From Mytilus trossulus (lineage: Eukaryota): a stretch of DNA of 64,000 nt. Positions 3,498-50,214 of this stretch are shown here, piece by piece. The position numbers were made by a program, and so were the translations under genes. Positions within the stretch are counted from its first letter, which is position 1; every line of letters starts with the position of its first letter. Location of the stretch: NCBI RefSeq assembly GCF_036588685.1, contig NC_086384.1:41602001-41666000 (forward strand), read 5' to 3'. The notes below the pieces were generated by a model. That model did no database searches, was not told where the DNA came from, and was given only the letters and a program-made list of their open reading frames with translations.

Positions 3498-4656
3498 CTC
3501 ACAAGAACATCAGCTCAGCCTCGAGGGATTTGTGATCCAATATCGCACGTGTTCTTGAGTATGAACAACAAAAGGGCATAAAAAACGTAGCCAAAAAATA
3601 AACAACACTGCCAAAGGAAATTGTAAACTCAGTTTAAGTACCTTTAGGCATTTTATACTGCATTCGTTCTATAAGAGCAGTCAAAATGCATTGACTGTAT
3701 ATTTCAATGTCATATACAGTCACTGACCCGATAGCACTTTTCCTCGTGAATATTCATATAAAAGTTGCCGAAACTATATTCAATTATTCATACGACCTCT
3801 TCAACCTGTTCTTGTTTCCAATGTACACAACGGAGACTGGAACGACTCAAACTTATTACTTCTACAATTTTTGGAAAAGCATATTCACTTGTCATTATGT
3901 TGTATGCTTATAGTTGATATTTTAGTCCATACTTATTCAAATTTGTTCACCAGCGATTGCGGTAATGTACATGTTCATCATGATGTATATTTCTCCGCCT
4001 GATACGAGGCCTTTCTAAAGGTGGCATTTTTTTCAAATATTTAAATCAAATAAATAACATTAACACATTAAACAGTATTAATTTAGATAATAATAGTGCA
4101 TTCACTTGACATATAAACGATATAAGAATTCGCCCTGAAACGGGGGTACTAGTAATGTTATTATTGTTAATCGGTCAATACCTCTGTTAGTTGACTGATA
4201 GTACCGAAGCGTATAACCAGCCTAAAAGCCAGTGCACTAAAAAAAAGTAAGAAAAGAAAACCAAAATACCAATATAGAAATCTCAAAACAGAAAGTCTCT
4301 TCAAAAATGGCAATTTCAATTGCCTAAATAAATGTTTTATCCTGATTTTGAACATGCATTGCCTTACATAGAAATTGTTGGATTAAAACGGGTTTCGTGG
4401 TTACCTTACTCTCTCACTTGTATGACAGTTGCATAAATTCTATTATATTGACAACAATATGGGAGCAAAACAATAAGATGTGTTAGGTAAAAATGTGAAA
4501 AACAGTAAACATTGTGTTATTATTATGGTAGCTTAACTTATAATGTTATATTATATACTCATAATATTTGAATTGATAATTTTATAGTGGAGGCATGCAG
4601 TCAAAAAAGTATTATATTTAATATTAACAACTTGAATCCTTACTTTTTCAATGCTA

Positions 4657-28662: not shown

Positions 28663-31100
28663 TTACTCTTCTCCTGGTGCTTGACAAAATGCAGCCTGAT
28701 GTTCCTTCCTAGCATATGGACGGACTTTTGAATATAGATATTCATGCCTAGTACGTGAAAGTCCGGCTGCAGGAATAACTTCTGGACGAGCCAACGGATC
28801 AAACTCTTCTAAGGGACGGCGAAGAATGTTTATTTCTTTTTCAATCCCATCTTATTTTTCTTTAACAATAACAATACCCGGTTTGTCATGACGGAAGACG
28901 AAATGATGATACTTTCTGATACCTGGAACAGGTTTAAACAACACAGATAAAAAAGATTTCCAATCTTTCCATTGCCAGGTTATTTCATTATTCTCTTGGT
29001 TATACTGAACAACTTCATTTGATGATGATGATTTTCGGAATACGTCCGCTAAATGAGATACAGTATCGCAGTTTGATCGTCGGAACAGTTTTTTTGCTTG
29101 ACCAAATCCAGCGTCTACCAAACATTTTGTATGACCAGGAAACTGCATCATTAGGCTTATTTTCTGGTGTTGTCCAGTTAGCACACGCCAAGCAAGATAG
29201 CCAGTCATATATCGATTTTTGTTTTCTCCTACAATAAAAGAACAAGTATTAAAATACTTTTATTTGTTGGGTGTTAAATATATTTACGCTTCATTTAATT
29301 GGTAGTTTTATTTTCAATTTAATTCCTCTAAATTGTTCAGTTTTATCTTAAATAGAACAGATGTATTGAATAACATGAACTCCTAATACTCCCATAGCAC
29401 TTTCGGTTTTTTATAAGGTTCGTATTGCTCAATTTTTAAACTTTGAATTGCAAGACGAAGAAAAAATGTTTTTTTTTAAATGGAACAGATTAATTTTCTT
29501 AGTTGTGTTGTTTTATATTCTTTGAATCGGGGTCTTTCGAAGTCGACTGTGCGATATTGAGTTTTCTCATTGTTGAAGTACGTGTTTGTCCTATAAATGC
29601 TTACATCCACTTTATTTCTACTTCAATGGATAGTTGTCTCATTTACATTTATACCACATCTCCTTATTATACGACCGCAAACAATTTTAAAGTCGTATAT
29701 TGCTAATTGGTATCATTTTTAAATTGGTTAAGAGGTTATTAATATAAACAAAGTCAATGTACTGAAATTTAAGTGAAAGTAACTTACCTGGACAATTATC
29801 ACAATGGTTCCACATTCAGACTCATTCAGACCGTAACACTCAACAGCATGGTCAAACATGGAAATTGTTGCGTTTGGACCCTTTGTATCTGCACAATCTT
29901 TAAAAATTCCCTCGTCTTCATCAACCAAATAGTTATACTGTTTCCGTTTTCCTTCCATGCATACCCCAAAAACTTTAACCTTTCTACCGGATAAAAAATA
30001 CAGTTGACCGACTTGATCGGTATGATGTGGCAAACTAATACTTTGAGCAAAATCAATTGTATAGTGAACATTCTTTAAAACCTGTCCTTGATTATAGTTA
30101 CTAAACTCGTCGCGAGATTTTGACAACCATCCGTTGTACAGCTCTCGTTCTCTCCTTGCAGCTTCAATATGGGATATGTAATTTTGGGATGTTTCAATTT
30201 TGTCCTCCTCAGTTTGTGCTAGAGTGACAGATTCTCGTAACCTTTTACAAGTAGTACACACATCAGAATGTAAAGAGGCGAATCGTATGTGCGGACAGCA
30301 AGACGACCAGACATTTTTGAATGTTGTTAAGTGGACACTTCTATTTCCATCTGCCTGACATGCTGATATATATGTGTCAAACACAGACTGTTTTGATTCA
30401 CACGTAGGTAACAAAACATGAGGTTCTGAGTCATGTCTGTTAGGTGGGGCAGCTTGTGGTAAACCATGCAGACGAGCATAATTTTTCAAGTATTGTACTA
30501 TATTTGAAATTTCCTCAAATGAAAATGCATTTTTCGGACGTCTATTACAATTTCCATGTTTTCGTGGAGCAATACCATTAGTGTTCATGTGTTTGAGCAA
30601 AGACTTTAAATAAGACTCTCCAATATCATGCGTAAGAAGAAATACATCGCGACAAACCTCTCTGTCGTCAAAGGTATAAGCATATCTAGTTCGCTTTCGC
30701 TCTCCATATCTTGAACGGGATTTATCGACTCCTGTTGATTTCAATTTACCCATTAAGTACATGTCTTTACCTTCTTTTGGTAGTTCATGCATAGATAGTA
30801 TATGAGTTATTATTTCATCTTGTTCAAATTGTTTTATACATTTTGCAAGACAACCACAATCTCCAGTTATTTTGGCCATATTCAAACCTTCATTGTTTAT
30901 ACATATATTATCTCCATTTTGATGTTGAACGAATGCTTCAGCTGCTTGTGCAATTTCATCAGTCTCGGATAAATGTGTGACAGGTTCTGTGTCTTCAAGT
31001 TCATTGTTTTCATTACCATTAATATTATCATTGTCTTCATCATTAAAGTTATTTGAAGGTGGTACATGTAGATATTCCCGATAAATTTCATCTAAATCCT
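28663..31100 (-). pseudogene. Sola1-like DDD transposase (DUF7869-type), disrupted
   Basis: Exon ~31100-29788 (TIDFAQSISLP..QVGQLYF..RKVKVFGVC; a 1-nt frameshift restores HCDNCP), intron 29787-29229, exon 29228-28663 (GENKN, PGHTKCLVDAGFG, WKDWKSFL, GIRKYHHF, GLSRTRHEYLYSKVRPY). Premature TAA at 28852. Confidence 0.8.
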
Positions 31101-31477
31101 GCAATAAACATTTATTAATTTTAAAAGTGTTTACCAAACAAACAAAAATGTAAGCTAAATTAAATAATTATATAGTACAAAAAATAACAGATGAACACTT
31201 TTTTTTAACTAAGAACAATGCGAATGTATCTCTTGTGCAAAATCTCAATCTGTTCATGTTCGTCATCAATATCGACTACTTGTATGGATTACAATAAAAA
31301 GTTTCGCCTAGATATTCCTTATGAGAACATTTTAAATCTGAATAACAACAAAATTATTTGATATAGCCTGACTATACATTTGTTAAGCTTCACTGGTTCA
31401 ATTATACTTAACCCATCAACACAAACACAAGTGGATAAACTAGGATTCTTTATAAAAAAAAGTTAATGGAACTGAGG

Positions 31478-31799
31478 NNNNNNNNNNNNNNNNNNNNNNN
31501 NNNNNNNNNNNNNNNNNNNNNNNNNNNNNNNNNNNNNNNNNNNNNNNNNNNNNNNNNNNNNNNNNNNNNNNNNNNNNNNNNNNNNNNNNNNNNNNNNNNN
31601 NNNNNNNNNNNNNNNNNNNNNNNNNNNNNNNNNNNNNNNNNNNNNNNNNNNNNNNNNNNNNNNNNNNNNNNNNNNNNNNNNNNNNNNNNNNNNNNNNNNN
31701 NNNNNNNNNNNNNNNNNNNNNNNNNNNNNNNNNNNNNNNNNNNNNNNNNNNNNNNNNNNNNNNNNNNNNNNNNNNNNNNNNNNNNNNNNNNNNNNNNNN
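31478..31799. other. Assembly gap (N run)
   Basis: Run of n characters. Confidence 1.
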
Positions 31800-32689
31800 A
31801 ACATATAGTGATATAGTGGCAATACCATTTCAGAAAAACGCGAACCCAACTAAAAACTGATTTTGTTAAGGGCAATATTTGATAATTCAAACTAATGATC
31901 AGTAAAAATATTTGAACAATTTTTCTGAACTTGTTGTAAATTTTATACTATAATTAATAATATGGCTAGCTACATGTAGCTATGTTACAGATGATGATTT
32001 ACAATTTATACACATACATGCAGATGTTACTGTAGTGAGAGTAAAACCTGTCGTCACTTTACTCTGTTCTTGTATGGCGGTAGGTTTATTCAATTACTTA
32101 ATATTCTTGATATTTTAAAGTGTTCAAAACAAGTTTTAATGAATTTAAGCGATATTGTGCGCAATGCAACTTTACAATTAGCATCTTAAATGTATAAATT
32201 GAGAAATATTAATTGAAACGAATTCAAATGAAATCGATGAAAAATCTGTCTTTGTGACACGTTTGACTGTATATGTACATAATTTACAAGTATACTGTTC
32301 GAGAAAAGAAAAACTGTTCCTAAATCATGCATACTGTGTAAAATTATAATTTTGATTTTTCGTGAAAAGTACAGTATTATCAAGATTATTTAAAAATTGA
32401 ACCCATTCCTGTCATTTCGTGAAATGATGAATGTAACTGGTTTTCAAGATAGCTTTTGTCATGTAGTTTCCAACAATAATTATCAAATAATGTCAAGAAA
32501 CCATAAAGTGTATAAGAAAACGATTAATTTTCATTTTCAAATGTTTTTTTTTCAATAATGTTATTTCTATATTATTCCTTGGGGGAGAGGGATTTCAGAA
32601 GTCATTACATTTTCTCATTTTAGGTATAAGTCTCTGGTTCTTTTATTTATTATATTTTGAAGGTATCCATTCGTCGAATAAAAATCTGG

Positions 32690-35444: not shown

Positions 35445-38400
35445 TTGAATAAGATAAGTTGTAAAAGTAGTAGTTTAAATTAAAAAAAAAAGAAAGAAAA
35501 AGAGTAGTAGTAGTAGTAGTAGTTGTAGTTTAGGTGTCAGACCACCAATTACTCCCTCCAATTTAGAACGTATGTAAAAGTAACCCTAATCTGACACAAA
35601 ATAGTGCTTTTGATGTCCTTGTTTACTTAAACTAACCAACAAATATGCAGAAATGAAACTTTTGGTGAAAGAGACATATATCTAGATCATTTTGAGTCAA
35701 AATTTACTTGTCTATGAGTTTGCATTAAAAATTGAGGATTAATGCGCTCCATAGTATACTTATTTTAGATTTCCAGAAAACCAGGTTGTTTTTTTTTAGC
35801 ATCTCTGTTGGAAGGTCAGTTAATTTGTTAGAAGGCTTTAAAGGTATGGTGAAAATTGGCATGTAGAATGCTGATACATATACAATTCAGAATATACCTG
35901 GTTTCTATGAAGTTAAACTTAAGGTAAAATATTTAGAAAGCTGTGAAAATTGCAAAATTTGGTTGAACAGATAGGGATTTTTAATTGGTGGTCTGACACC
36001 TATAGTACAAGAGATGCTGTAGTTGAACTTATAGTAGTAATTGCTATCAAAGTATAACTTCAATATTCTTAGAAGTAATTTATTTAAATTACAGATGCCA
36101 GATATTCCAAATCGAGGCTTGCTGTTCAACATAGGGTTCCAGAAAGCCATGACCAATATGAAGTATGATTGTGTGATATTTCACGATGTTGATGTGATAC
36201 CAGAAGATGACAGGAATTATTATGCCTGTGAATATTATCCACGTCACATGGCAAAGAGGATAGACAGAAATAAATATACGTACGTCATGCATTAGACTAC
36301 GAAGACGATCATTCTATTTATCTAGGAGAGAGTTTGAAAATAAAATTTTAGGCCTGTTACAAAGTGAAAATAAACAGTTTGATTAAGACGTGATTAAAAT
36401 GAATATGATTCAACAAAAGGCAGGCAATAGTTGTAAACACATGTATAAATATTTGTTTGTGTTGAAAAAAATCATACATAAACCGAGACCAAATAATCTA
36501 GTCGCTGGATTCGATCACTACGATTGATTGACTGTGATCATAAGGCCAAATAAAAAAGTATGTGTGGTTCCAATTGCATCTTAAAAAAGGTTAGGGTAGG
36601 TAGGTAGGGATTTTTTTTTTTTTTTTATGTTTTATTTTTACATTGAGTCTATGGGAGCAACATTCTGACATTAACATTACTTAATAAAAAATGGCAAAAC
36701 AATCTTTAGGGTAGGCTATTATAGAGACTAAAAAGTTGGGTAGGTAGGGTTACTGGAACCACACATATATTTTTATTTGACCTTACCATTTTTCCGCCAA
36801 AATTTCGTTGGTTCTTTACATGTATTTTAGCTTCCTCAAGCCACAAAATATTGACCATATGATAAAACCATGAATAATAAAACACCATAAATTAATGATA
36901 GTAAGAGGAAAACAGATTATTCAAAAACATGACTATGTGCACAGAATATGATATTTTTAATTTGATCTTAATTTAGATTTGATTGTTTTCACCTTAAATA
37001 CATATGCTGAGATTTTGTCATTTTAGATTGAATTCAGCCAAGCACATACTAAATTGCTCACTTTTATGCATAACATTATTAACATTTAATCATTTGTATT
37101 CAGGCTTCCACATAAAGACTGGGCTGGTGGTATCATTTCCATGAATCCGGAGCAGTACACACAAATAAATGGATGGTCCAATATGTATATTGGAAACCAC
37201 ACAGACAACGAAGACATTTATAGAAGGTATGTCTCGCAATTAAAACTGTACGTTGTGGTTTTGTTGACCACATACATGTACAAATGCATATATATGTCAA
37301 TGCATACTAATATATAGTAAACAAGTTAATCGGCACATATGCAATAACAATACTGAGTAATAAGAAAAGGTGTATAATAAAAAAAGTACACAACGAAATT
37401 GTATATATACGTATCAATAATGCATAGAGATATCCGGAATCACCGGTAAAAAATACAGAACAGTAGAATAAACCCCATTAATCATCATCATCAAATCATC
37501 GGAACAACCAGAAAAAGAAATATTTACAAAAAACAACAGAAAAAACATGATCCGGACAGCATTACTTGTTACAGACCCAAGATACAGTTAAAATTAACAA
37601 GTATTAAGTGCTCTTATCCCCTTTTTGTGTTACCAAACGAGACCAAGGTTAAGCTAGCTATAAAACCTGATTAATCCACTTTTTTCTACATAAGAAAATG
37701 TCCGTACCAAGTCGGAAACATGACAGTTATATCCATTGGTTTGATGTGTTTCAGTTATCAATTTTGTTTAAGGACATTGAATTTTTAATTTTCCTCGGAG
37801 TTCTCCCTGTTACACTAAAAAAACAAAAATGAAAATAGCTCCAGCTCTCAACAATATAATCGATTATAAGAATAAAAAAAAACACATAACGGTGTCCATA
37901 AAAACACAATAAGGTCATAATTGAATCCGAAGGTAAAAGTATACAAGATCACTGAGATGAAGCACACCTCCGAGTGCGGGGTTTTCTCGCTGTGTTGAAG
38001 ACTAATTGGTGGTCTTGGACTGTTTTCAGATCTTTTGGCGGGTTGTTTTCTCGTTGACATATTCCCCATTTCAATTCTCAAATTTATACATATAATCCCT
38101 ATACCTACCGGTAGCCAAATATATTTTCCGAGCTGCTGAGTTCACCTCATTAAAAGTTACCCAACCTTTAAAAGTAATTATTCGAAATACAAACTGAATC
38201 TGTGTTAAAACAACTATGTTCTCCTACTTCAACACCATGTACATTAGTAGGTGAATAACACATAAGAATGCTTGAATAGAATAGGTTAGAATGATAGATC
38301 TATCAAGTTATATTGCTCTATTATTTTCAATTTACTGCACAAATACAAAACTGAGTGCCATGGATGTATTTTGTAGAATAGTGACCCATTATGACTTAGT

Positions 38401-41400
38401 TCGAACTGAAGATAAATACTCGTACTGTGGCAGTACATCTGATAAAACAGAACTTCCTAACAAGGAAGGGTAAGTATAGAGCAAGCAACAAAAGTTCAAT
38501 TTTGAAGTTGAAGTTTTTAAAATTATTTCAAGTAAGGGTGGAAGATACTAAGGAGACATACAAGGAATTTGTTTTGGTGCCGGCTGATAAAGCAGCTAAT
38601 AATATGATTCATTATGGTTTGAAGTAAATTTTATATTGAGGTTCTGCAAAATGAAATCACGAATTCACCAACATTCCAACTGACTTCATTTAAAAAAAAC
38701 TACATCTGTAACAAACACAAACTTTTAGCTTCTTCTTTACTAGCCGAACCAAATACAATGAGAGTTCCAACTATGTACTGGCTTCCTAAGCTACACAAAA
38801 AACCTTACCAATATAGATTTATTTCATCTTCAAGCCATTGCTCCACTACTAAATTGTATATTCTACTTATTTGTACACTTGGTAAATAAAAAAACTGATA
38901 ATGAATTGTTCAAAGTTATCAAAGGTACCAGGATTATAATTTTGTACGCCAGACGCGCGTTTCGTCTACATAAGACTCATCAGTAACGCTCATATCAAAA
39001 CATTTATAAAGCCAAACAAGTAAAAAGTTGAAGAGCATTGAGGATCCAAAATTCCAAAAAGTTGTGCCAAATATGGCTAAGGTAATCTATGCCTGGGATA
39101 AGAAAATCCTTAGTTTTTCGAAAAATTCAAAGTTTTGTAAACAGGAAATTTATAAAAATGACCACATTATTGATATTCATGTCAACACTTCGGTGTTGAC
39201 AACTGGGCTGGTGATACCCTCGGGGACGAAACGTCCACCAGCAGTGGCATCGACCCATTGGTGTAAAAAGTTATCAAAGGTACCAGGATTATAATTTTGT
39301 ACGCCAGACGCGCGTTTCGTCTACATAAGACTCACCAGTGACGCTCATATCAAAACATTTATAAAGCCAAACAAGTAAAAAGTTGAAGAGCATTGAGGAT
39401 CCAAAATTCCAAAAAGTTGTGCCAAATACGGCTAAGGTAATCTATGCCTGGGATAAGAAAATCCTTAGTTTTTTCGAAAAATTCAAAGTTTTGTAAACAG
39501 GAAATTTATAAAAATGACCACATTATTGATATTCATGTCAACACTTCGGTGTTGACTACTGGGCTGGTGATACCCTCGGGGACGAAACGTCCACCAGCAG
39601 TGGCATCGACCCAGTGGTGTAAAAAGTAATCAAAGGTACCAGGATTACAATTTTGTACGCCAGACGCGCGTTTCGTCTACATAAGACTCATCAGTGACTC
39701 TCATATCAAAACATTTATAAAGCCAAACAAGTAAAAAGTTGAAGAGCATTGAGGATCCAAAATTCCAAAAAGTTGTGCCAAATACGGCTAAGGTAATCTA
39801 TGCCTGGGATAAGAAAATCCTTAGTTTTTCGAAAAAATCAAAGTTTTGTAAATAGGAAATTTATAAAAATGACCACATTATTGATATTCATGTCAACACT
39901 TCGGTGTTGACTACTGGGCTGGTGATACCCTCGAGGACGAAACGTCCACCAGCAGTGGCATCGACCCAGTGGTGTTAAAAGTTATCAAAGGTACCAGGAT
40001 TATAATTTTGTACGCCAGACGCGCGTTTCGTCTACATAAGACTCATCAGTGACGCTCATATCAAAACATTTATAAAGCCAAACAAGTAAAAAGTTGAGGA
40101 GCATTGAGGATCCAAAATACCAAAAAGTTGTGCCAAATACGGCTAAGGTAATCTATGCCTGGGATAAGAAAATCCTTAGTTTTTCGAAAAATTCAAAGTT
40201 TTGTAAACAGGAAATTTATAAAAATGACCACATTATTGATAATCATGTCAACACCTCGGTGTTGACTACTGGGCTGGTGATACCCTCGGGGACGAAACGT
40301 CCACCAGCAGTGGCATCGACCCAGTGGTGTAAAAAGTTATCAAAGGTACCAGGATTATAATTTTGTACGCCAGACGCGCGTTTCGTCTACATAAGACTCA
40401 TCAGTGACGCTCATATCAAAACATTTATAAAGCCACAAGTAAAAAGTTGAAGAGCATTGAGGATCTAAAATTCCAAAAAGTTGTGCCAAATACGGCTAAG
40501 GTAATCTATGCCTGGGATAAGAAAATCCTTAGTTTTTCGAAAAATTCAAAGTTTTGTAAACAGGAAAATTAGGCCTTTGAAAATTGTGGAATTAATTACT
40601 TTTGGAGTGTCAAAAACTAGATGAAAGTACTTGATAAATTGCATGCATACCGGTATATTGCTGATTTTAATCTGTACAAAGTTTTGATTTGTCTACCCTA
40701 TATACCACTTTGCCACATATTCTTATGAAGAAAAAAATCACATCCCTAATTAACTGGGCATTTAAAGAGTCAGAATGCGAGTACATATGTTCAAACTCTT
40801 TTAAGTAGCTATAAACAAAAAAAATATGTTAATTGGAAATGCTTTTATACTATATTTGTGCTTGAATTTTTACTTGATAATATTTTTCTTCGCTTTGGAG
40901 ATTCCGTATATCGTCAAGTTATTGGAATTCCAATGGTGTCTAACTGTGCACCAATTATTGCGGACATGTTTTTGTATTGTAATGAGTTACAATTTATGAC
41001 TAAAAACTAGCAAAGACATATCGAAACAACATTTGATACAGAAATTTAACAATAATTTTATATATTTGGATGATATATTGGCTCTCAATAATGACACCCT
41101 CAGTATGTATTCTTAAGAAATTTATCCGGTAGAACTTACTTTAAATAAAGCGAATACTAATAATGACCATTGCCTTTTCCTCGATTTTGATATCTATATC
41201 ATTAACGGGAAGCTTAATACAAAAATTAATGATAAAAGAGATGATTTTTCATTTCCTATCGTTAACTATCCATTTTTAGTAGGTGACGTTCCCTTGTCAC
41301 CATCTTATGGTGTTTACATATCTTAACTTGTACGATTCGCTCGTGTATGTAACAACGTATTATATTTTAGCGAGAGACATTTATGTATTAATGAAAAATT

Positions 41401-44400
41401 ATAACACTAGGTTTTCGATATCACAAACTAATCAAAACTTTTACTAAATTTTATCATCACATAAGGAAATTCGTAAAAATAACTCAACATGCAGACATTT
41501 TATACGTTCAGGTATTTCACATCCAATCTTTTATGGTAATATTCTTTACAAAGCACATAAATGTCAGTATTCACCTTAAAAGCTTACACAACCTTTAAAC
41601 AGACTTATTAAGAAGGGATATAGTTACGATACTGTTGTCAGGTCATTAAAGATTGCATTTTTTGGCTTTAATATTGATTCTCTTGTAGGTTCTTTGGACA
41701 GTTGTTGGCATGAAACGGGTTATGTTCTTTTCATACATTTTATGATAGTAAATGATGATACTAAACCCCTAACGGGAGGGATTGTGCCTGATATTCATAT
41801 GATGAAGACATTATCTTTCAATCAGTTTAATTGAGGTTTGGAGCTGTCATGTCAGTTAACTGCCAGTAGCCTGTTGTTATTTCTGTATTATTGTCATTTT
41901 GTTTATTTTCTTTTGTTACATTTCTGACATCGGACTCGGACTTTTATTGAACTAAATTTTAATGTGCGTATTGTTATGCGTTTACTTTTCTACATTGGCT
42001 AGAGGTATATGGAGGGTTGAGATCTCATAAACATGTTTAACCCCGCCGCAATTGTGCGCCTGTCCCAAGTCAGGAGCCTCTGACCTTTGTTAGTCTTGCA
42101 TAATTTTTAATGTAGTTTCTTGTATGTAATTCGGCGTTAAGTATGACGTCCATTTTCACTGAACTAATATACATATTTTTAAGGGATCAGCTGAAGAACG
42201 CCTCCGGGTGCAGAAGTTTCTCTCTACATTGAAGACTCATTGTTGGCCTTCGGCTGTTGTCTGCTCTATGGTCGGGTTGTTGTCGCTTTGACACATTTCC
42301 GATTTCATTTCTCAATTTTATACACACTGATAAATTGATAGACACTGAAAACGCCATGACATAAAATAACAATAGACGACAATACCTGTGGTGAAATTCT
42401 TCCCAAAACTTCAAATCATTTCTTTAACCTCTGAGCACATTTTTTCCTAAACCTTTATGCAAACCGTTTCCCTAACCTCTGTTTATATTCGAACCTACAC
42501 CTCAGATCATATCCTTTCTTCAACCTCTAGCCGGATTGTTTCATTAACCACTGGTCATATTCTACACTAAACATTGGTCATACTTTCCCTTGAAACTCCG
42601 ATCATATCTATCTTTTAACCTTTGATTATATTCTTCCTTCAATCTTATACACCAAACATCTTCGACCACAAGGGTGTAAAAATGTAAAAATCAAAACCTT
42701 CCTATTGCTTCTGTTGCCTAAACTTAATCATATTCCTAAATTACATGTTTTGTTCATTACTTTCCCTGTACACGTTATATTTGTTTAAACCTCTCTAAGT
42801 TTGTTACTGGCGTTCCTGATGAAGGTTATGAAATTTCATTTTTACATTGTGTTTTGTTTCAATTTCTAGCAGCGGGTCAATAACACTTCTGGTGGACTGT
42901 TTGTCTCTAGGGTCGTCAGTCCTGTAGTAATTGCTTAGCTAATGACATGATTAATGCAATAGAAATTGTAAAGATAGCACGGTTCCTTCTCTCTCAGGGA
43001 AAGTTGCCCTTCAATGATTTTGATTATTTATTTATTTATTTCCCTTTTGTAATATAGATCATGTAGTCATACATCCCCGGTTTTGGTTTCAACTGTTCCT
43101 ATTAACCATGGTAAAGTTTGAAAAACGACTCGGTGCATCACATGCGAGTAGTTTTATCCTTCGTCGTATTTTAACCTCTTACCATACTTTGTCTTAAAAC
43201 TTTAAGAATATTATAACATAAGCATGAAATCTATTTAAGCTATCCTCCAATTGAATGTAGATGATATTTCATAGTTTCCTCAGTTCTGTATTCTTCAATT
43301 CTTTTGTACGTTGTACACATTATTTACCATTTTGTTGACCGTTATATTCTGTTTGACAGGTATTCTATGTTCTTTCTAATTTCGCACACCATAATTTTCT
43401 CACTTCATTGTTTTAGCTTTTTTCCTTTATTCTTTTTACATGTTTTATCAATCATTTCCTTTTGCTTGCCCCATCCACAACTTCATCTCATCCCATCATA
43501 AGAAAGGGAAAATTTAGTTTGATAAGCATACAAATCAATTACTGTAACCCAACGTATTTCCGCAGATACTTATTTGAGCGTTTAGCCCTTTCTAGCCCAT
43601 TTCACAATTCTCAAATTCACTGGATATAAATTAGGGGGAAATCCAAGTTATACACATTCGCGAAGATTTATATTCGCGATATTTTCTACTCGCGGAAATA
43701 AATCGCTCGCGGAAATAAATCGCTCGCGAAAATAAATTGGTTAACAGTACTATTTGATTGATTATGATCGTTAAGGATAACCCTATAGGACATGACAGAT
43801 TTACATCATGTATCAACACTCGGCAAATTTCTTAGATAATTATATCAAGATAATTTTCTACCAGTGGAGTATATTACTTAAGCTGGTTTTTGTAAAACCT
43901 TTCCAGATTCCTGAATGTCCTTTCACTTTTTAGCCTTTTGTATTCGAGGATTACTGACGAGTCTTCAGTAGAAGAAAATCGCGTTTTGATTTATGTTATA
44001 AATAAAAGCAATAGTTGTATGCCGCTGTTCAATAGTCATAAATCAATTTAACTCTCAACCAAAACTGAAACAAATCAAATAAAAGAAGAAAACAATGGAG
44101 TAACAGGAACACAAAAGTTCTACAAAACCTAAGGCCAATTTACATAGAAACTGACTGTGATAACAACTGACATATATCTGAATTATGTATGTACATTGTT
44201 TAAAAAATGGTGGGTTGAATCAGGTTTTGTGGCTGGCCAAAACTCCCGCTTATAAAATATGCAAAATACAAAAAATGCTTTATGTATTTTATCTTATTTC
44301 GAAGATGTTGGTCGTTTGAGAAAACCGGTAGAACCTGGCAAATCGATGGTCTCAACAACACAGCATATGAGAAAGCAGAAATACTTAACAAAAAACTCTT

Positions 44401-44593
44401 CACTTTAGTAGATATCGGATTATTTTCTCAAAAAATCAGGAATGTGAGTATATTTGTTAAGAATAAAAATTATTATAGTAGCACAAATGTGTCATTGAAT
44501 ATACTGACTATAACATATATTATACTAACTTTCTATTTTATAACACTTAAAAGTTATTTTGCTAGTTTACCTGTATCTAATGTTTTATACTAG
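32690..44593 (+). CDS. Divergent glycosyltransferase family 7 (B4GALT/bre-4-like) protein, ~391 aa, 6 exons (32690-32933, 33760-34001, 36095-36279, 37104-37226, 38377-38469, 44305-44593)
   Basis: N-terminal TM; GHYKPKLCIAYQKVAII; LRRQQLEFGIY; NRGLLFNIGF; YDCVIFHDVDVIPEDDRNYYAC..PRHM; GGIISM..INGWSN; DGLNN. Splice phases are consistent (1176 nt). Confidence 0.85.
33290..33670 (+). repeat. Dispersed retroposon 3'-end repeat (family B)
   Basis: Further copies at ~37640-37805 (+), 54190-54347 (-) and 55270-55378 (-), sharing CCTGTACCAAGTCAGGAATATGACAGTT. Confidence 0.7.
35090..35530. repeat. Degenerate (TAG)n microsatellite region
   Basis: Several AGT/TAG runs. Confidence 0.9.
36544..36782. mobile_element. 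MITE, Zator/Harbinger-like
   Basis: TIRs GGCCAAATAAAAAAGTATGTGTGGTTCC / GGAACCACACATATATTTTTATTTGACC, flanked by TAA/TTA. Confidence 0.65.
38914..40568 (-). repeat. Retrozyme array 1: ~4.65 tandem copies of a 355-bp unit, one hammerhead each
   Basis: Unit starts at 38916, 39271, 39627, 39982 and 40337; highly similar copies. Confidence 0.95.
40012..40055 (-). ncRNA. Type I hammerhead ribozyme (array 1; other copies at ~38946, 39301, 39657, 40367)
   Basis: Minus strand GCGUCA-CUGAUGA-GUCU UAUGU AGAC-GAAA-C GCGC G-UC^-UGGCGU: full core, stems I and II, minimal palindromic stem III, GUC cleavage triplet. Confidence 0.92.
43542..43748. mobile_element. Small TA-flanked MITE
   Basis: TA|CTGTAACCCAAC ... 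TTGGTTAACAG|TA, with internal TCGCGGAAATAAA repeats. Confidence 0.55.
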
Positions 44594-45159
44594 CATATTC
44601 ATTTAAGGTTTGACCAAACTTTTTCTACTTAGGTTGGTGTACTCCAACTATTACAGGAAGTTTATAGAATAAAGAAGACGTAAATTAATTTGCGAAAATG
44701 TAGATAATATATCATCATAAATTATTAAAAAAATATATAATAGAAAGTACATCACAGTACGTTTTGCAGTCGTAAATACGTTCGGTAACTCTGTACATTA
44801 CTTGTTTATGATTTTGTATACAAGACGAAACTCATCATTGATACCAGGGTTACAATTTTAAACGCCAGACGCACGTTCTTTTCTTATTCAGACCTACTAT
44901 TAAAGAGTTAATAATACCAAATAAAGTACTAAGGATTGACCAAGAATTCAACTAAGACTATCTTTTTCCCGGGGTGGACAATTCTTAGCATTTCGAAACA
45001 ACGAAACAATTAAAGTTTTGTAATCTTATTGACAATTCATGTTGACAACTGGACTGGTTACACACTCGAGGCGAACTTGAATTATTCAAAAATGCTAGCG
45101 TTGGAATTAATGTCTGTGCTGAAATTGACCTCGGAATTCATTATTGTAACCTCAATATT

Positions 45160-46432
45160 TTATAAATTTATTATAAATTAAGTAATGAATCTCCCTCATG
45201 CAAAGCTCTGATTCCTTTCACGGATTTTGCTATACTTTTGGGATCTTTTGGATTATAGCTCTTCATTTTTTATCTAAGCTTTAGGTTTCAAATATTTTGG
45301 GCACGAGCATCACTGAAGAGACATGTATTGTCGAAATGCGCATCTGGTGCAGAATTTTTTTTACCGTTAATGATATAACTACCACTGGGTCAATGCCTCT
45401 GCTGGTAGACTGTTAGTCCCCGAGGGTATCACCAGCCCAGTTGCCAGTACTTCGGTACTGGCATAAAAATACGGATTTATTTTTTTTATTATTAAAATTT
45501 CTGATACAAAATGTTAGCAATTATTATAAATTAAAGACTGCATCTCCCTCATGCAAAGCTCCGATTCCTTTCACGGATTTGGCTATACGTTTTGGACCTT
45601 TTGGATTATAGCTCTTCGTCTTTTATCTAAGCTTAAGGTTTCAAATATTTTGGCCACGATCATCACTGAGAGACATGTATTGTCGAAATGCGCAACTTGT
45701 GCAGAAAAATTTGTACCGTAAATGATATGACTACCACTGGGCCGATATCTCTGCTTGTGGACTGTTAGTCCCCGAGGGTATCACCAGCCCAGTAGCCAGT
45801 ACTTCGGTACTAGCATGAAAATACGGATTTTTTTTGGTTATTAAAATTTGCTGTAACAAAATGTTAGAAATTATTATGAATAAAGGAATGCATCTCCCTC
45901 ATGCAAAGTTCAGATGCCTTTCACGGATTTGGCTATACTTTTTTGACCTTTTGGATTATAGCTCTTCCTCTTTTATATAAGCTTTGGGTTTCAAATATTT
46001 TGGACACGAGCATCACTGAAGAGACTTGTATTGTAGAAATGCGCATCTGACGTAGGAAAATCGGTACCTTTAATGATATTACTACCATTGGGTCGATGCC
46101 TCTGCTGGTGGGCTGTTAGTCCCCGAAGGTATCACCAGCCCAGTAGCCAGTACTTCGGTACTGGCATGAAAATACTGATTTTTTTTGGTTATTAAAATTT
46201 GCTGTTACAAAATGTTAGAAATTATTATAAATTAAGGAATGCATCTCCCTCTTTTAAAGCTCTGATTCCTTTCACGGATTTGGCTATACTTTTTGGACCT
46301 TTTGGATTATAGCTCTTCATCTTTTATATAAGATTTGGGTTTCAAATATTTTGACCACGAGCATCACTGAAGGGACATATATTGTCGAAATGCGCATCTG
46401 GTGCAGGAAAATTGGTACCGTTAATGATATTA
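45160..46432 (+). repeat. Retrozyme array 2: ~3.6 tandem copies of a ~351-bp unit, one hammerhead each
   Basis: Hammerhead motifs at 45307, 45660, 46010 and 46361; units more diverged than array 1. Confidence 0.92.
45307..45350 (+). ncRNA. Type I hammerhead ribozyme (array 2, intact copy)
   Basis: GCAUCA-CUGAAGA-GACA UGUAU UGUC-GAAA-U GCGC A-UC^-UGGUGC; AUC cleavage triplet. Confidence 0.9.
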
Positions 46433-46597
46433 TCAGTCTCGGCAACTTACAGTGCGATCAAATCACTTAACATACTACTGTCTAATTCGAGAAATAGAAA
46501 ACGAGAATATATGAATTGTATGAAACGGTTTATTTGAAACATTACAATGAAGGTAACCATCCGAGAAAGTAACAAACATGAGAGACTTGTAGGTTAA

Positions 46598-47339
46598 GGT
46601 TTATGTACCCTTCTGTAGCCATTTTTGTACGAACTTTTGAAACTTCAATTGTATCAAGACTACAGATATAATGAATAATAGAGATAGGCCATGTTATACA
46701 TATTCCAAGGGGAAACTTGATGCAAAGCATTATTTTTTACTGTTCCATTGCATTTAATAGAAAAAGAGGACTTTATGGCAAATAAATCAAGAATTTTATA
46801 GAAAATCCACAGCCTTTATCCTTGTACTCTCATATTTGGCAATTTGATGCCTGAGAGATATAGGATTATTGCATGCAGTGCTAGCATTGATTTCCTTAAA
46901 ACTTAAAGTTTATAAATGTAGTTATTGGTTAAACAAATATGAATATGGCCAAAATCAAGTACACCTTTTAGGGTGCACTCGACTTTAGTGACTCAGCACG
47001 AGGTGTTTTGGAATTTACAAGTTGCTTAAAACCTTTTAGAAAAAAATAAACACTAGCACATCATAGAAAATCAAGTGAGTAATTTATGTTTCAAATTTTA
47101 TAACAAAAATCTCTATTAAAGGCTGTGGATTTTCTATAAAAATCTTGATTTATTTGCCACAAAGTCCTCTTTTTTTCTATCAAATGCAATGAAACAATAA
47201 AAAATAATGCTTTGCATCAAGTTTCCCCTTGGTTTATGTACAAAATGGCCTATCTCTATTATTCGTTTTATCTGTAGTTTTGATACAATTGAGGTTTGAA
47301 AAATTCGTACAAAAATGGCTACAGAAGGTTACATTAACC
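46598..47339. mobile_element. Non-autonomous DNA transposon with ~220-bp TIRs (Kolobok-like)
   Basis: 46598-46820 is the imperfect reverse complement of 47117-47339; GG termini; TTAA on the left, TTCA on the right. Confidence 0.75.
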
Positions 47340-50214
47340 TTCATTAATTATTTACAGATGTCTTTCTCTCTATGGGCGCCTTTTCATACTTCATTAGTGA
47401 CAGAGCATTTGACAAACATTATAAATATCACAGCTGTTCATGCCAAGAAATATTGTCAAGTCGGACTATAAAAACTCACCTTTTAATAGCCGTATCCTTT
47501 ATTGAGCTTCAAAGTGTACTTATATTGATACAGCGGGACAAGATAAAAAAAAATACCATTAAGAGGCGATCATTAGACAGGTTTGACTGTAAATGCAATG
47601 TGTTACCTCCTTTTCCCAATTTTATGATAAAAAAAAAGACTAATAATTGCTTTTTTTTTACATTTTTTGTAGAGTTACTTGAAACGAATGCGAAATATAA
47701 CAAACTTCGACAGTCTTCCGAATGCAACACTGACGCTAAACAACATGGTCTGTGAGCAGTTACTTGGAAGAAAGCTTGATTTTAATACAATATTAAAAAC
47801 ATAATGATGACTTTATAAAATACTACAAAAAGTAATGTGTGCATTGATCTGAGGAAAAAGTGTCATTAGATTTACTGAAAAGAAAATGTTTTTGAAGATC
47901 CCTAAATGTTATTTTCAATTCTTCTCCAAAATATTTATGTACCTTTGATCCAGAGCTAACCCCAAAGTATAAATAAATATAAAGAATACGTCAATAAGAC
48001 GACACAAATAGCAAAATACATTTAGAATTCGATGCAAAGTCTTCAACAATGTGTAACAATCTGTATTATAAAAGAATGTTTACCTTTGTTGAATCTACCA
48101 AAGGTGCACTTGATTATGTTCAATTTTTAAATTCAGATTTCACACTAGTAACGAAACGTTAGTCAATACCTTTTAGTTTCGTAGTAATCACATTGCATGT
48201 GTTTGATATGAATTCCTACTTTTAATTGCCTGAAAGTGTATTTCAACAAATTCAACTTTCATGACTGCACGTGTTTCTCGTGACAACGTCAATACATTGC
48301 ATAGGAAAATCTTGATATTTATCGTTATGTTCGTACAATAATTAGAAGATGAGGTATAGTTGTCTATGAGAAAACTCTCAATCAGAGATAAAGACATAGA
48401 AGTTCGTAGAATGTAAATTACGTGCGTATGGCGTAAAAACAAAATTCAAATCCTGCAATATATGATGAGTTTATTTTGTATCTTCTAGGGTTGCAAAATC
48501 GTTGATCGTGTGTACAAATTTTAGTATAAAGCTCTTAAATGCTTTATCCAGAATGCACTTTGGTCAACACTTTTACACTTCAATCAAATTAAAAACAGAA
48601 TCATTCAATTTTTAAATCTATATTTTTTTATATTCTGTATGTTATTTTGAATTTAATTGGTCAACATTCTGAAATGAAATCTGAAAACAAATATAAAATG
48701 ATGATTTTCATTTTATGACGTTTTCTACATAAATTCGTACACCATTAAGTACTAGATAAACATTAATTGTTGAACATTGTGTTGAATATTTAGATTATAA
48801 AGATCATACAATAATGCTCGTCTCATTTAGTAAATTGTGAGATAATATGCCATAATGTACATGAAATTTGTCTGGTGAACGATTTTTTTTATCAGGGTAT
48901 CTCTGATGATGTTTTACACTTAATTAATTTCATACAAATTACATTTATATCTAAAAAATTGATATACAAAAAGTCACATATTTCTTTAAGCACGTACATT
49001 CATTAACAATTGATCAACCAAACATGTTAAAGTAAACACATTGACATTAGGGTACATATGATTATAACAGTATATAATACAAAAGAATAAGGCTCATATA
49101 ACGATTTATCAAAAAAGAGAAATTTTAAAAGAATTTGATTGTGGATGTAACACGTCTTCTGGTTGGCTGAAAGTGTTTTTTGTCTATAAGCTCATAGATC
49201 CAATAATTTTGTCATGTGACCGCGACGTCATTAACGTTTTTTCATTACATACTCCTGTTAAGAATTAAAATATAAGAAATAACTTTAAAATACAATAACA
49301 ATATAATAAACACTTTTTTAAAAACCCGCTACACGGGTTATTCAGTATGCACCACGGTTTTTTTTTTTATGTTATTTCTAAATACACAGAAAGAATATTA
49401 CAGTCATTTCTCAATTGTATAATAATCTCACTTGTTATTGTCACATTGTTTTTTTAAGCCCCTGTTGTTTATCAATACTTAACCTCTTTAAATCTAAACC
49501 TGTGTTGTACCAATCGTTTGCTAACATTAAATTTTTTTTTAAAAAATAAAAAAAACTCTTTTTCGTAATATTTTTTTCTTCAAAGAAAAAAAAATAACTT
49601 TAAATGAAAAACAAATTATATAAAAAGATACACGCTAATTGTTCTACCACTTGTCAGTTCAAATCACATGTGTATACAACTATACTACCATGCGTTGGGT
49701 ATTATTATCAATATTTCCAAATCTGGAAAAGGGTAAATCACGCTTTGGCTGAACAATTTTGGTTCATAATCTAACATTTGAAAAGTTATACCGACGAGTA
49801 GCAATCTGAAGTAGTTAGGATGAAACATAACAGAGACCTATAAAATTTAGACTATTAAAGCATTTGAGTAACCAGACGAAATGATGAATTCCAGTTATTT
49901 TTTTCTCTGTAACATAAAATAAACTTGAAAAAAACTGCACAGTAAAATGCACAATAATTCAAATTGTTGTTAATTTAAAAACATATATGATTTGCACAGC
50001 ATTTCTATTTCGAAATTTAAAAAAAAATGATAAATAAACCCTTCAAATTAAATCACTTAATATTTAATTTCCAAAATGTAATTTTCTATTAAGTTTGGAT
50101 AGTTTTATTATAATTCACTTGTTTTCTACTTATCTAATAAACTCTATAAAAACCATCACAGTTAATTTAAGCATATTCATAAATCATTTTAAACACAGAT
50201 TAAACACAACTAAG

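Follow-up and report, generated by a model that had tools for sequence, protein, structure and literature searches.

The family 2 retrozyme array at positions 45164–46432 (+ strand) of the window, i.e., the whole stretch of 64,000 nucleotides of Mytilus trossulus contig NC_086384.1 that was analyzed, is very probably a high-copy mussel repeat that inserted into an intron and is now decaying, and a sister subfamily of family 1, the retrozyme array in the preceding intron; it probably multiplied as a non-autonomous retrozyme, and a role in the host gene is unlikely. The locus itself matters little, being one decayed copy among very many. Taken as a pair, the two families test the mussel hammerhead fold in a clean natural experiment and draw attention to structured portions of the element beyond the ribozyme, and the best remaining lead is a fixed 3′ end that comes with a conserved structured domain.

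The Array and Its Unit

The array consists of 3.6 units of 351 bp, beginning 181 nt before the first predicted cut site and ending 34 nt past the last one, and was called by Tandem Repeats Finder at 45153–46432 (period 351, 3.6 copies, 88% matches). The region has a GC content of ~33%, and the unit contains no ORF, all of its stop-to-stop frames being short (≤70 aa). Family 1, which serves as the comparison family, occupies 38912–40575 on the − strand, antisense to the gene (38912–40571, period 355 and 97% matches in Tandem Repeats Finder), and the original prediction of a different ~351-bp tandem unit on the strand opposite to family 1 was correct, with the family 2 hammerhead on the + strand and that of family 1 on the − strand. 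The units of the two families align end to end, at 61–64% identity in the full MAFFT alignment and 68–70% by blastn, so that their stem columns are comparable. Judged by this alignment, the two are sister subfamilies of common origin, and what had been announced as a second, distinct retrozyme family is indeed a second family, for which "distinct" is better put as sister subfamily.

In metagenome contigs, a pattern scan returned one locus, L001, which comes from a marine metagenome and represents family 2 independently of the window; pattern scans for the hammerhead returned none in the viral contigs of one scan and none in bacterial genome contigs, and a candidate from viral contigs (L002) was dropped as a chance match in coding-like DNA. 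Positions 1–734 of L001 resemble a microbial coding sequence joined to the mussel repeat, and L001 is probably a chimeric metagenome contig. Each full unit of the array is 90.5–93.7% identical to L001, compared with 87.4–89.5% to the other units of the array, and the variants of the array are mostly private to one copy; copies 1 and 2 have four in common, which indicates that the array also underwent local duplication or conversion. Family 2 units diverge from their own majority by 4.6–8.0% (the unit of copy 1 being the most diverged, at 8.0%), compared with 0.8–1.4% for family 1 units, and hence the family 2 array is the older of the two, as had been proposed. After the cut site of copy 3, the letters at 46048–46075 resemble family 1 (TGACGT, GGTACCTTT), which could reflect a chimera, a third variant or chance.

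Family 2 is a very common repeat. In sequencing run X24, the summed contig depth is 3.08 million at a family-2-specific bin and 110–127 at the exons of the host gene, a difference of about four orders of magnitude that is not to be read as a copy number, and many flank-like loose ends are found among the run contigs. The ratio of family 2 depth to that of the neighboring repeat is 9.0–12.4 in three runs guessed to be RNA and 3.4 in X24, which is at most a hint, summed contig depth being a poor measure of expression. According to the depth table, another very high-copy repeat, which carries no hammerhead, lies at 46494–47417 in the same intron.

The window holds further repeats and frames. A degraded family 1 monomer (44828–45090, − strand) lies directly upstream of the family 2 array and is also present in the empty-site contig described below, and is therefore older than the family 2 array. 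Degraded retrozyme pieces on the + strand occur at 43900–43990, 42862–42950, and 4145–4233; they comprise one decayed hammerhead, at 43954, and the conserved domain in two copies. Broken reverse-transcriptase-like frames, identified by eye at 38400–41830, flank the family 1 array as if it had inserted into an old retroelement; of four such fragments around the array, none gave a Pfam match at a useful E-value. A 479-aa open frame at 29728–31167 (− strand), just upstream of an assembly gap (~31476–31800), looks DNA-transposon-related.

Gene Context and Empty Site

With an exon of the GT7 gene as query, one protein was retrieved (P0001), which by its source name is a Mytilus edulis beta-1,4-galactosyltransferase 4-like protein, and Pfam reports the GT7 N and C domains. 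Seven strong tblastn blocks fall on the window, the last two at 44303–44443 and 47673–47801. Together with the splice sites, they place the penultimate coding exon of this B4GALT4-like (GT7) gene at 44305–44443 (+), its last intron at 44444–47672 (+; GTGAGT donor, and CTAAT, T-tract and TAG acceptor), and its last coding exon at 47673–47804 (+; 84% identity over 43 aa, E 1.6e-17), which ends with the true stop codon TAA (47802–47804). The exon junction at 44443/47673 is in phase 0. The array is contained in the last intron and, as predicted, is sense to the gene, with 901 nt from the donor to the cut site of copy 1 and another 2328 nt from there to the acceptor. It had been placed just 3′ of the GT7 stop, from where the ribozyme could cleave read-through or 3′UTR RNA; this rested on a wrong gene model, as the array is intronic rather than downstream of the stop in the mature mRNA, and a further coding exon follows, for which both tblastn and a spliced contig speak. 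The stop that was used is likely the one at 44591–44593, which is reached only by reading through the GTGAGT donor at 44444, and the read-through peptide up to 44593 has no match in P0001. Canonical beta-1,4-galactosyltransferases carry a WGWGGEDDD motif. At this site (37099–37230), the GT7 protein reads YIGNHTDNED, as does P0001, and a protein of such sequence may have altered or lost activity.

Contigs of 4 of the 24 listed sequencing runs were compared with 44250–48200. Record 16 of run X4 (1269 nt, depth 14.5) joins 44304–44440 to 47673–47850 through three intervening letters, exactly as many as 44441–44443 would occupy, and is therefore a spliced transcript. It differs from the window at 10 of 137 and 3 of 178 letters, which marks it, by sequence, as derived from a relative or another allele; it thus shows that the site is intronic, and not the normal splicing of the array-bearing allele. 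Contigs of X24 (records 8 and 15) run through both exon junctions as genomic DNA. An empty site is seen in record 1 of run X1 (476 nt, depth 4.3, ~90% identical), where 45159 is joined directly to 46430, and record 9 of X24 stops at 45163. The empty-site contig, a single one of low depth, could come from a paralog or another species. The letters TTAT occur once in the empty-site form and at both ends of the array in the window (45160–45163 and 46430–46433, both +), forming a candidate 4-bp target-site duplication, of which the right copy also matches the element's own end at three of four letters.

Hammerhead Copies and Their Decay

Copy 1 (45307–45350, +) is an intact type I hammerhead with a predicted cut after C45344, and is identical to the hammerhead of L001. 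It is composed of stem I GCAUCA/UGGUGC, core CUGAAGA, stem II GACA/UGUC, GAAA, and stem III AU/AU around GCGC. All 12 invariant positions of the core CUGANGA/GAAA/UH are present in copy 1 and L001, and the three helices (6 + 4 + 2 pairs) are backed by the four double changes discussed below, helix I being open-ended and helix III short with a palindromic loop. Copy 2 (45660–45702, +) is broken by a core deletion, U16.1>A, and two stem I mismatches, while copy 3 (46010–46053, +) keeps its core letters, with G10.1–C11.1 and another stem II pair broken and one mismatch in stem I. Copy 4 (46361–46404, +) carries A9>G in the core, its cleavage site and the 3′ strand of stem I being intact, and neither copy 2 nor copy 4 has the full invariant core. 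The cut position after C45344 matches the hammerhead layout of copy 1, as had been claimed. It had also been stated that only the first copy retains a perfect core; copy 1 is indeed the only fully intact hammerhead, but copy 3 has kept the core letters, with broken stems.

Mutations affect 11 of the 176 nt in the four hammerheads (6.25%), compared with a background of 6.2%, and the intactness of copy 1 hence needs no selection; there is no sign of selection on the hammerheads at this locus. Monomer release requires two intact ribozymes in succession, which the array, with three of its four hammerheads broken, does not have, and by the rule that an active retrozyme has two consecutive complete hammerheads (Li et al., 2026), an array with one intact among four is inactive.

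Covariation Between the Two Families

As described in the original prediction, stem I reads GCAUCA/UGGUGC in family 2 and GCGUCA/UGGCGU in family 1, stem II reads GACA/UGUC and GUCU/AGAC, respectively, and stem III has a U-A instead of a C-G pair around GCGC. Of the 44 hammerhead positions, 12 differ between the families, nine of them in stems, two in loop II, and one at core position 7. Position 7 of the hammerhead core is free to vary. All 12 pairs are kept through four double changes, two of them in stem II and one each in stems I and III, and through one G-C/G-U change; upon random placing of nine stem substitutions, 12 kept pairs with at least four doubles were obtained in 10, 40, 18, and 46 of 400,000 trials under four settings. 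The unpaired invariant core is kept at 12 of 12 positions, the chance of 12 differences missing all of them being 0.011. Among 43 pairs in an 8-row alignment, 8 have both partners changed (four of them outside the ribozyme and not mentioned in the original prediction), compared with 0–3 when the partners are slid by 1–3 columns, yet the rows represent only two independent lineages, and this shuffle control is therefore not a probability. The compensatory changes had been put forward as direct evidence of selection on ribozyme structure. They are good evidence that the fold was selected; however, they record selection on the mobile parent lineages and not on the locus at 45164–46432, where the hammerheads have mutated at the background rate.

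Predicted Folding

The hammerhead is not the minimum-energy fold in family 2 or family 1. The probability of stem I is ≤0.45 in short fragments and ≤0.06 with at least 20 nt of upstream sequence, family 1 behaving alike, and the whole family 2 unit folds no better than shuffles (z ~ −1). In both families, stem III forms a perfect palindrome of 8 nt, which allows an 8-bp intermolecular helix (modeled at −10.5 kcal/mol) and thereby makes cleavage as a dimer possible; in a cofolding model, the 5′ fragment of copy 1 and the site of copy 4 form a double-hammerhead-type duplex of −19.0 kcal/mol, equal to that with its own site. Across the whole window, the family 1 array included, Rfam yielded no match at the gathering score and no hammerhead among the five matches at E ≤10, an absence that is weak evidence, since the Rfam models miss the form with a short helix III.

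A Structured Domain and Fixed 3′ Ends

Downstream of the ribozyme, a conserved structured domain at 45384–45441 (+) is ~90% identical between the families, compared with ~62% for the whole unit, and contains one double change. It is followed at 45443–45462 (+) by an 8-bp hairpin with a UUCG cap and three double changes between the families, which were reached in 123 and 179 of 200,000 random trials; domain and hairpin are also found in copies 2 and 3, and their family 1 counterpart lies, e.g., at 39530–39615 (− strand). The hairpin loop of family 1 (39180–39200 and other units) reads CGAA on the hammerhead strand, and run contigs of family 1 match through TTCG, from which it appears likely that the founder of the family 1 array had this loop inverted. 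A second hammerhead antisense to the conserved domain was rejected by eye, as its CUGGUGA forms one strand of a stem and the GAAA is missing from family 2.

In four of four readable elements, the 3′ end lies shortly past the cut site, namely at +34 in the array at 45164–46432, at +27 in L001, and at +40 in both the family 1 array and the family 1 remnant near 44830 (end positions 46432, ~1202 of L001, 38912, and 44828, respectively), with seven extra letters in family 1 in the stretch between the cut site and the 3′ end. The 3′ ends fall just past a GGTACC-like motif, and low-agreement loose ends of run contigs at 46422, 46425, and 46432 accord with the 3′ end. The 5′ ends vary (181 and 203 nt before the first cut), that of L001 being unreliable, with a left part that looks unrelated.

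A 3′ end inside the monomer would fit priming on a circle or an uncut multimer, and the conserved structured domain adjoining it is possibly a reverse-transcription start signal. More specifically, the ~80-nt structured domain might recruit a Penelope-type reverse transcriptase that primes 27–40 nt past the cut on a circle or an uncut multimer, a proposal that we make tentatively and about which our doubts outweigh our confidence. If it is true, the fixed 3′ end would constitute genomic evidence for rolling-circle reverse transcription of retrozyme circRNA, and the two mussel families would expose a cis-signal for retrozyme mobilization. Recognition and priming by the reverse transcriptase of animal retrozymes is left open in the discussion of PMC7229834 and in the available text of Li et al. 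(2026), and the fixed 3′ end together with the conserved domain makes the priming question testable on any Mytilus assembly.

Proposed Mechanism and Alternative Explanations

Active arrays elsewhere would be transcribed by read-through, whereupon the tandem hammerheads would cut out ~351-nt monomers that a host ligase circularizes, as can be inferred from PMC7229834. A borrowed reverse transcriptase, probably Penelope-like, would start 27–40 nt downstream of the cut site, cross the ligation joint, round the circle, and insert tandem copies whose 3′ end is fixed and whose 5′ end is ragged. Families 1 and 2 descend from one ancestor and have kept the hammerhead and the two downstream hairpins by double changes, with selection presumably acting on propagating copies; selection on this cycle of cleavage, circularization and retrotransposition would explain the covariation. 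After insertion, the copies decayed evenly, with three of the four hammerheads breaking, and copy 1 may still slowly cut the pre-mRNA inside the intron, which splicing would mostly tolerate.

Copy 1 could instead have been retained because, as a ribozyme within the intron, it competes with splicing of the last intron and tunes the output of the gene, for which the CPEB3 ribozyme provides a precedent (PMC10919898). It is intact even though its unit is the most diverged, the chance for copy 1 alone staying intact over 44 nt at the mean rate being ~0.06, and it is sense to the gene and upstream of the acceptor. However, the chance of at least one intact hammerhead among four copies is 0.22–0.43, an empty site exists in one contig, and the hammerhead fold is poorly populated in its context. 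RNA polymerase II covers the 2.3 kb to the acceptor in one to a few minutes. The rate published for a mussel hammerhead, whose family is not stated, is slow (kobs ~0.1/min, i.e., a half-life near 7 minutes; PMC7229834), and splicing persists when slow hammerheads cleave an intron (PMC2995048, citing Dye, 2006; Fong, 2009), so that retention for a host function appears very unlikely. For cleavage of 3′UTR or read-through RNA by a ribozyme 3′ of the stop, an intron-retaining isoform with the stop at 44593 that extends past 45344 would be needed. The frame is open through the donor to this stop, and AATAAA-like hexamers occur in the intron, but five AATAAA/ATTAAA hexamers (44668–45009) lie between the stop and the ribozyme, donor and acceptor are canonical, the last exon is in frame and conserved, and both the spliced contig and the unmatched read-through peptide argue against such an isoform, which makes this scenario hardly credible.

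The double changes, in turn, could partly result from DNA template switching at inverted repeats rather than from selection on RNA, the repeat being plain satellite DNA. The mechanism has been described (bioRxiv 10.1101/2021.04.15.439925), stem III offers a perfect palindrome in both families, and the UUCG loop is apparently inverted in the family 1 array of the window relative to run contigs (loose ends at 45808), so such events do seem to occur here. Nevertheless, the unpaired core is fully kept with a change at the free position 7 alone, the arms of stem I stand 32 nt apart around nested hairpins, and mussel retrozymes cleave in vitro and form circles (PMC7229834); we consider template switching of this extent very unlikely. 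The preferred reading is thus that of a decaying intronic insertion of a mobile retrozyme.

Comparison With Known Systems

The CPEB3 ribozyme is HDV-like, single-copy and conserved in mammals. The array resembles it in carrying a sense self-cleaving motif, here a predicted one, in an intron (PMC10919898), but the motif of family 2 belongs to the hammerhead class and to a high-copy repeat, its site is empty in one contig, and its decay is neutral. The hammerheads in the pLTRs of Penelope-like elements are likewise of type I and located near the 3′ end, with a 30–40 bp tail (Craig et al., 2021; PMC8557442), similar to the ends found here 27–40 nt past the cut. In contrast to these elements, the family 2 unit has no ORF, and their tail, as that article describes it, extends the insertion unit and is attributed to endonuclease resolution; the match in tail length may be a coincidence.

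Animal non-LTR retrozymes, which are Penelope-like derivatives, consist of tandem type I hammerhead units (Li, Clavereau, and Pollet, 2026; bioRxiv 10.64898/2026.07.22.740005). Family 2 agrees with this class in its tandem units within 150–450 bp, each with a type I hammerhead (351 bp × 3.6, four hammerhead positions), in being, like this class free of LTR, PBS, and PPT, of low GC content and non-coding (~33% GC, frames ≤70 aa), and in being dispersed, high-copy, and mobile, as indicated by L001, the summed depth, the loose ends, and the empty site. Target-site duplications of non-LTR retrozymes, when present, exceed 4 bp; the candidate here is the 4-bp TTAT that is partly common to the element end. 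A partner pLTR was not found for family 2. Most families in the preprint of Li et al. (2026) have ≤7 units, and 42–44% of Xenopus retrozymes are intronic, which makes an intronic location ordinary; no mollusc is examined in its available text, which has no match to Mytilus, mussel, bivalv, or mollusc.

The closest likeness is to the non-LTR retrozymes of Mytilus galloprovincialis, which combine a type I hammerhead, ~350-bp low-GC tandem repeats, two families, and a very high copy number (Cervera and de la Pena, 2020; PMC7229834). In its main text, that article reports ~5000 type I hammerheads in mussel, in two families of similar sequence with repeats of 350–390 bp and without most conserved loop 1–loop 2 contact nucleotides, and its Mg353 monomer is close in length to the 351- and 355-bp units of the window. 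Two hammerhead families in mussel are thus already in print, and family 2, likened by description rather than by sequence, is likely the second of them; in a literature search of main texts, mussel hammerheads were treated only in this article, its preprint, and a review. The consulted text of that article gives no account of compensatory changes between its families, of a UUCG hairpin and a conserved domain past the ribozyme, or of 3′ ends at a fixed place, and the array at 45164–46432 differs further in having decayed. The family 2 element is likely an ordinary selfish element of the kind already described in mussels.
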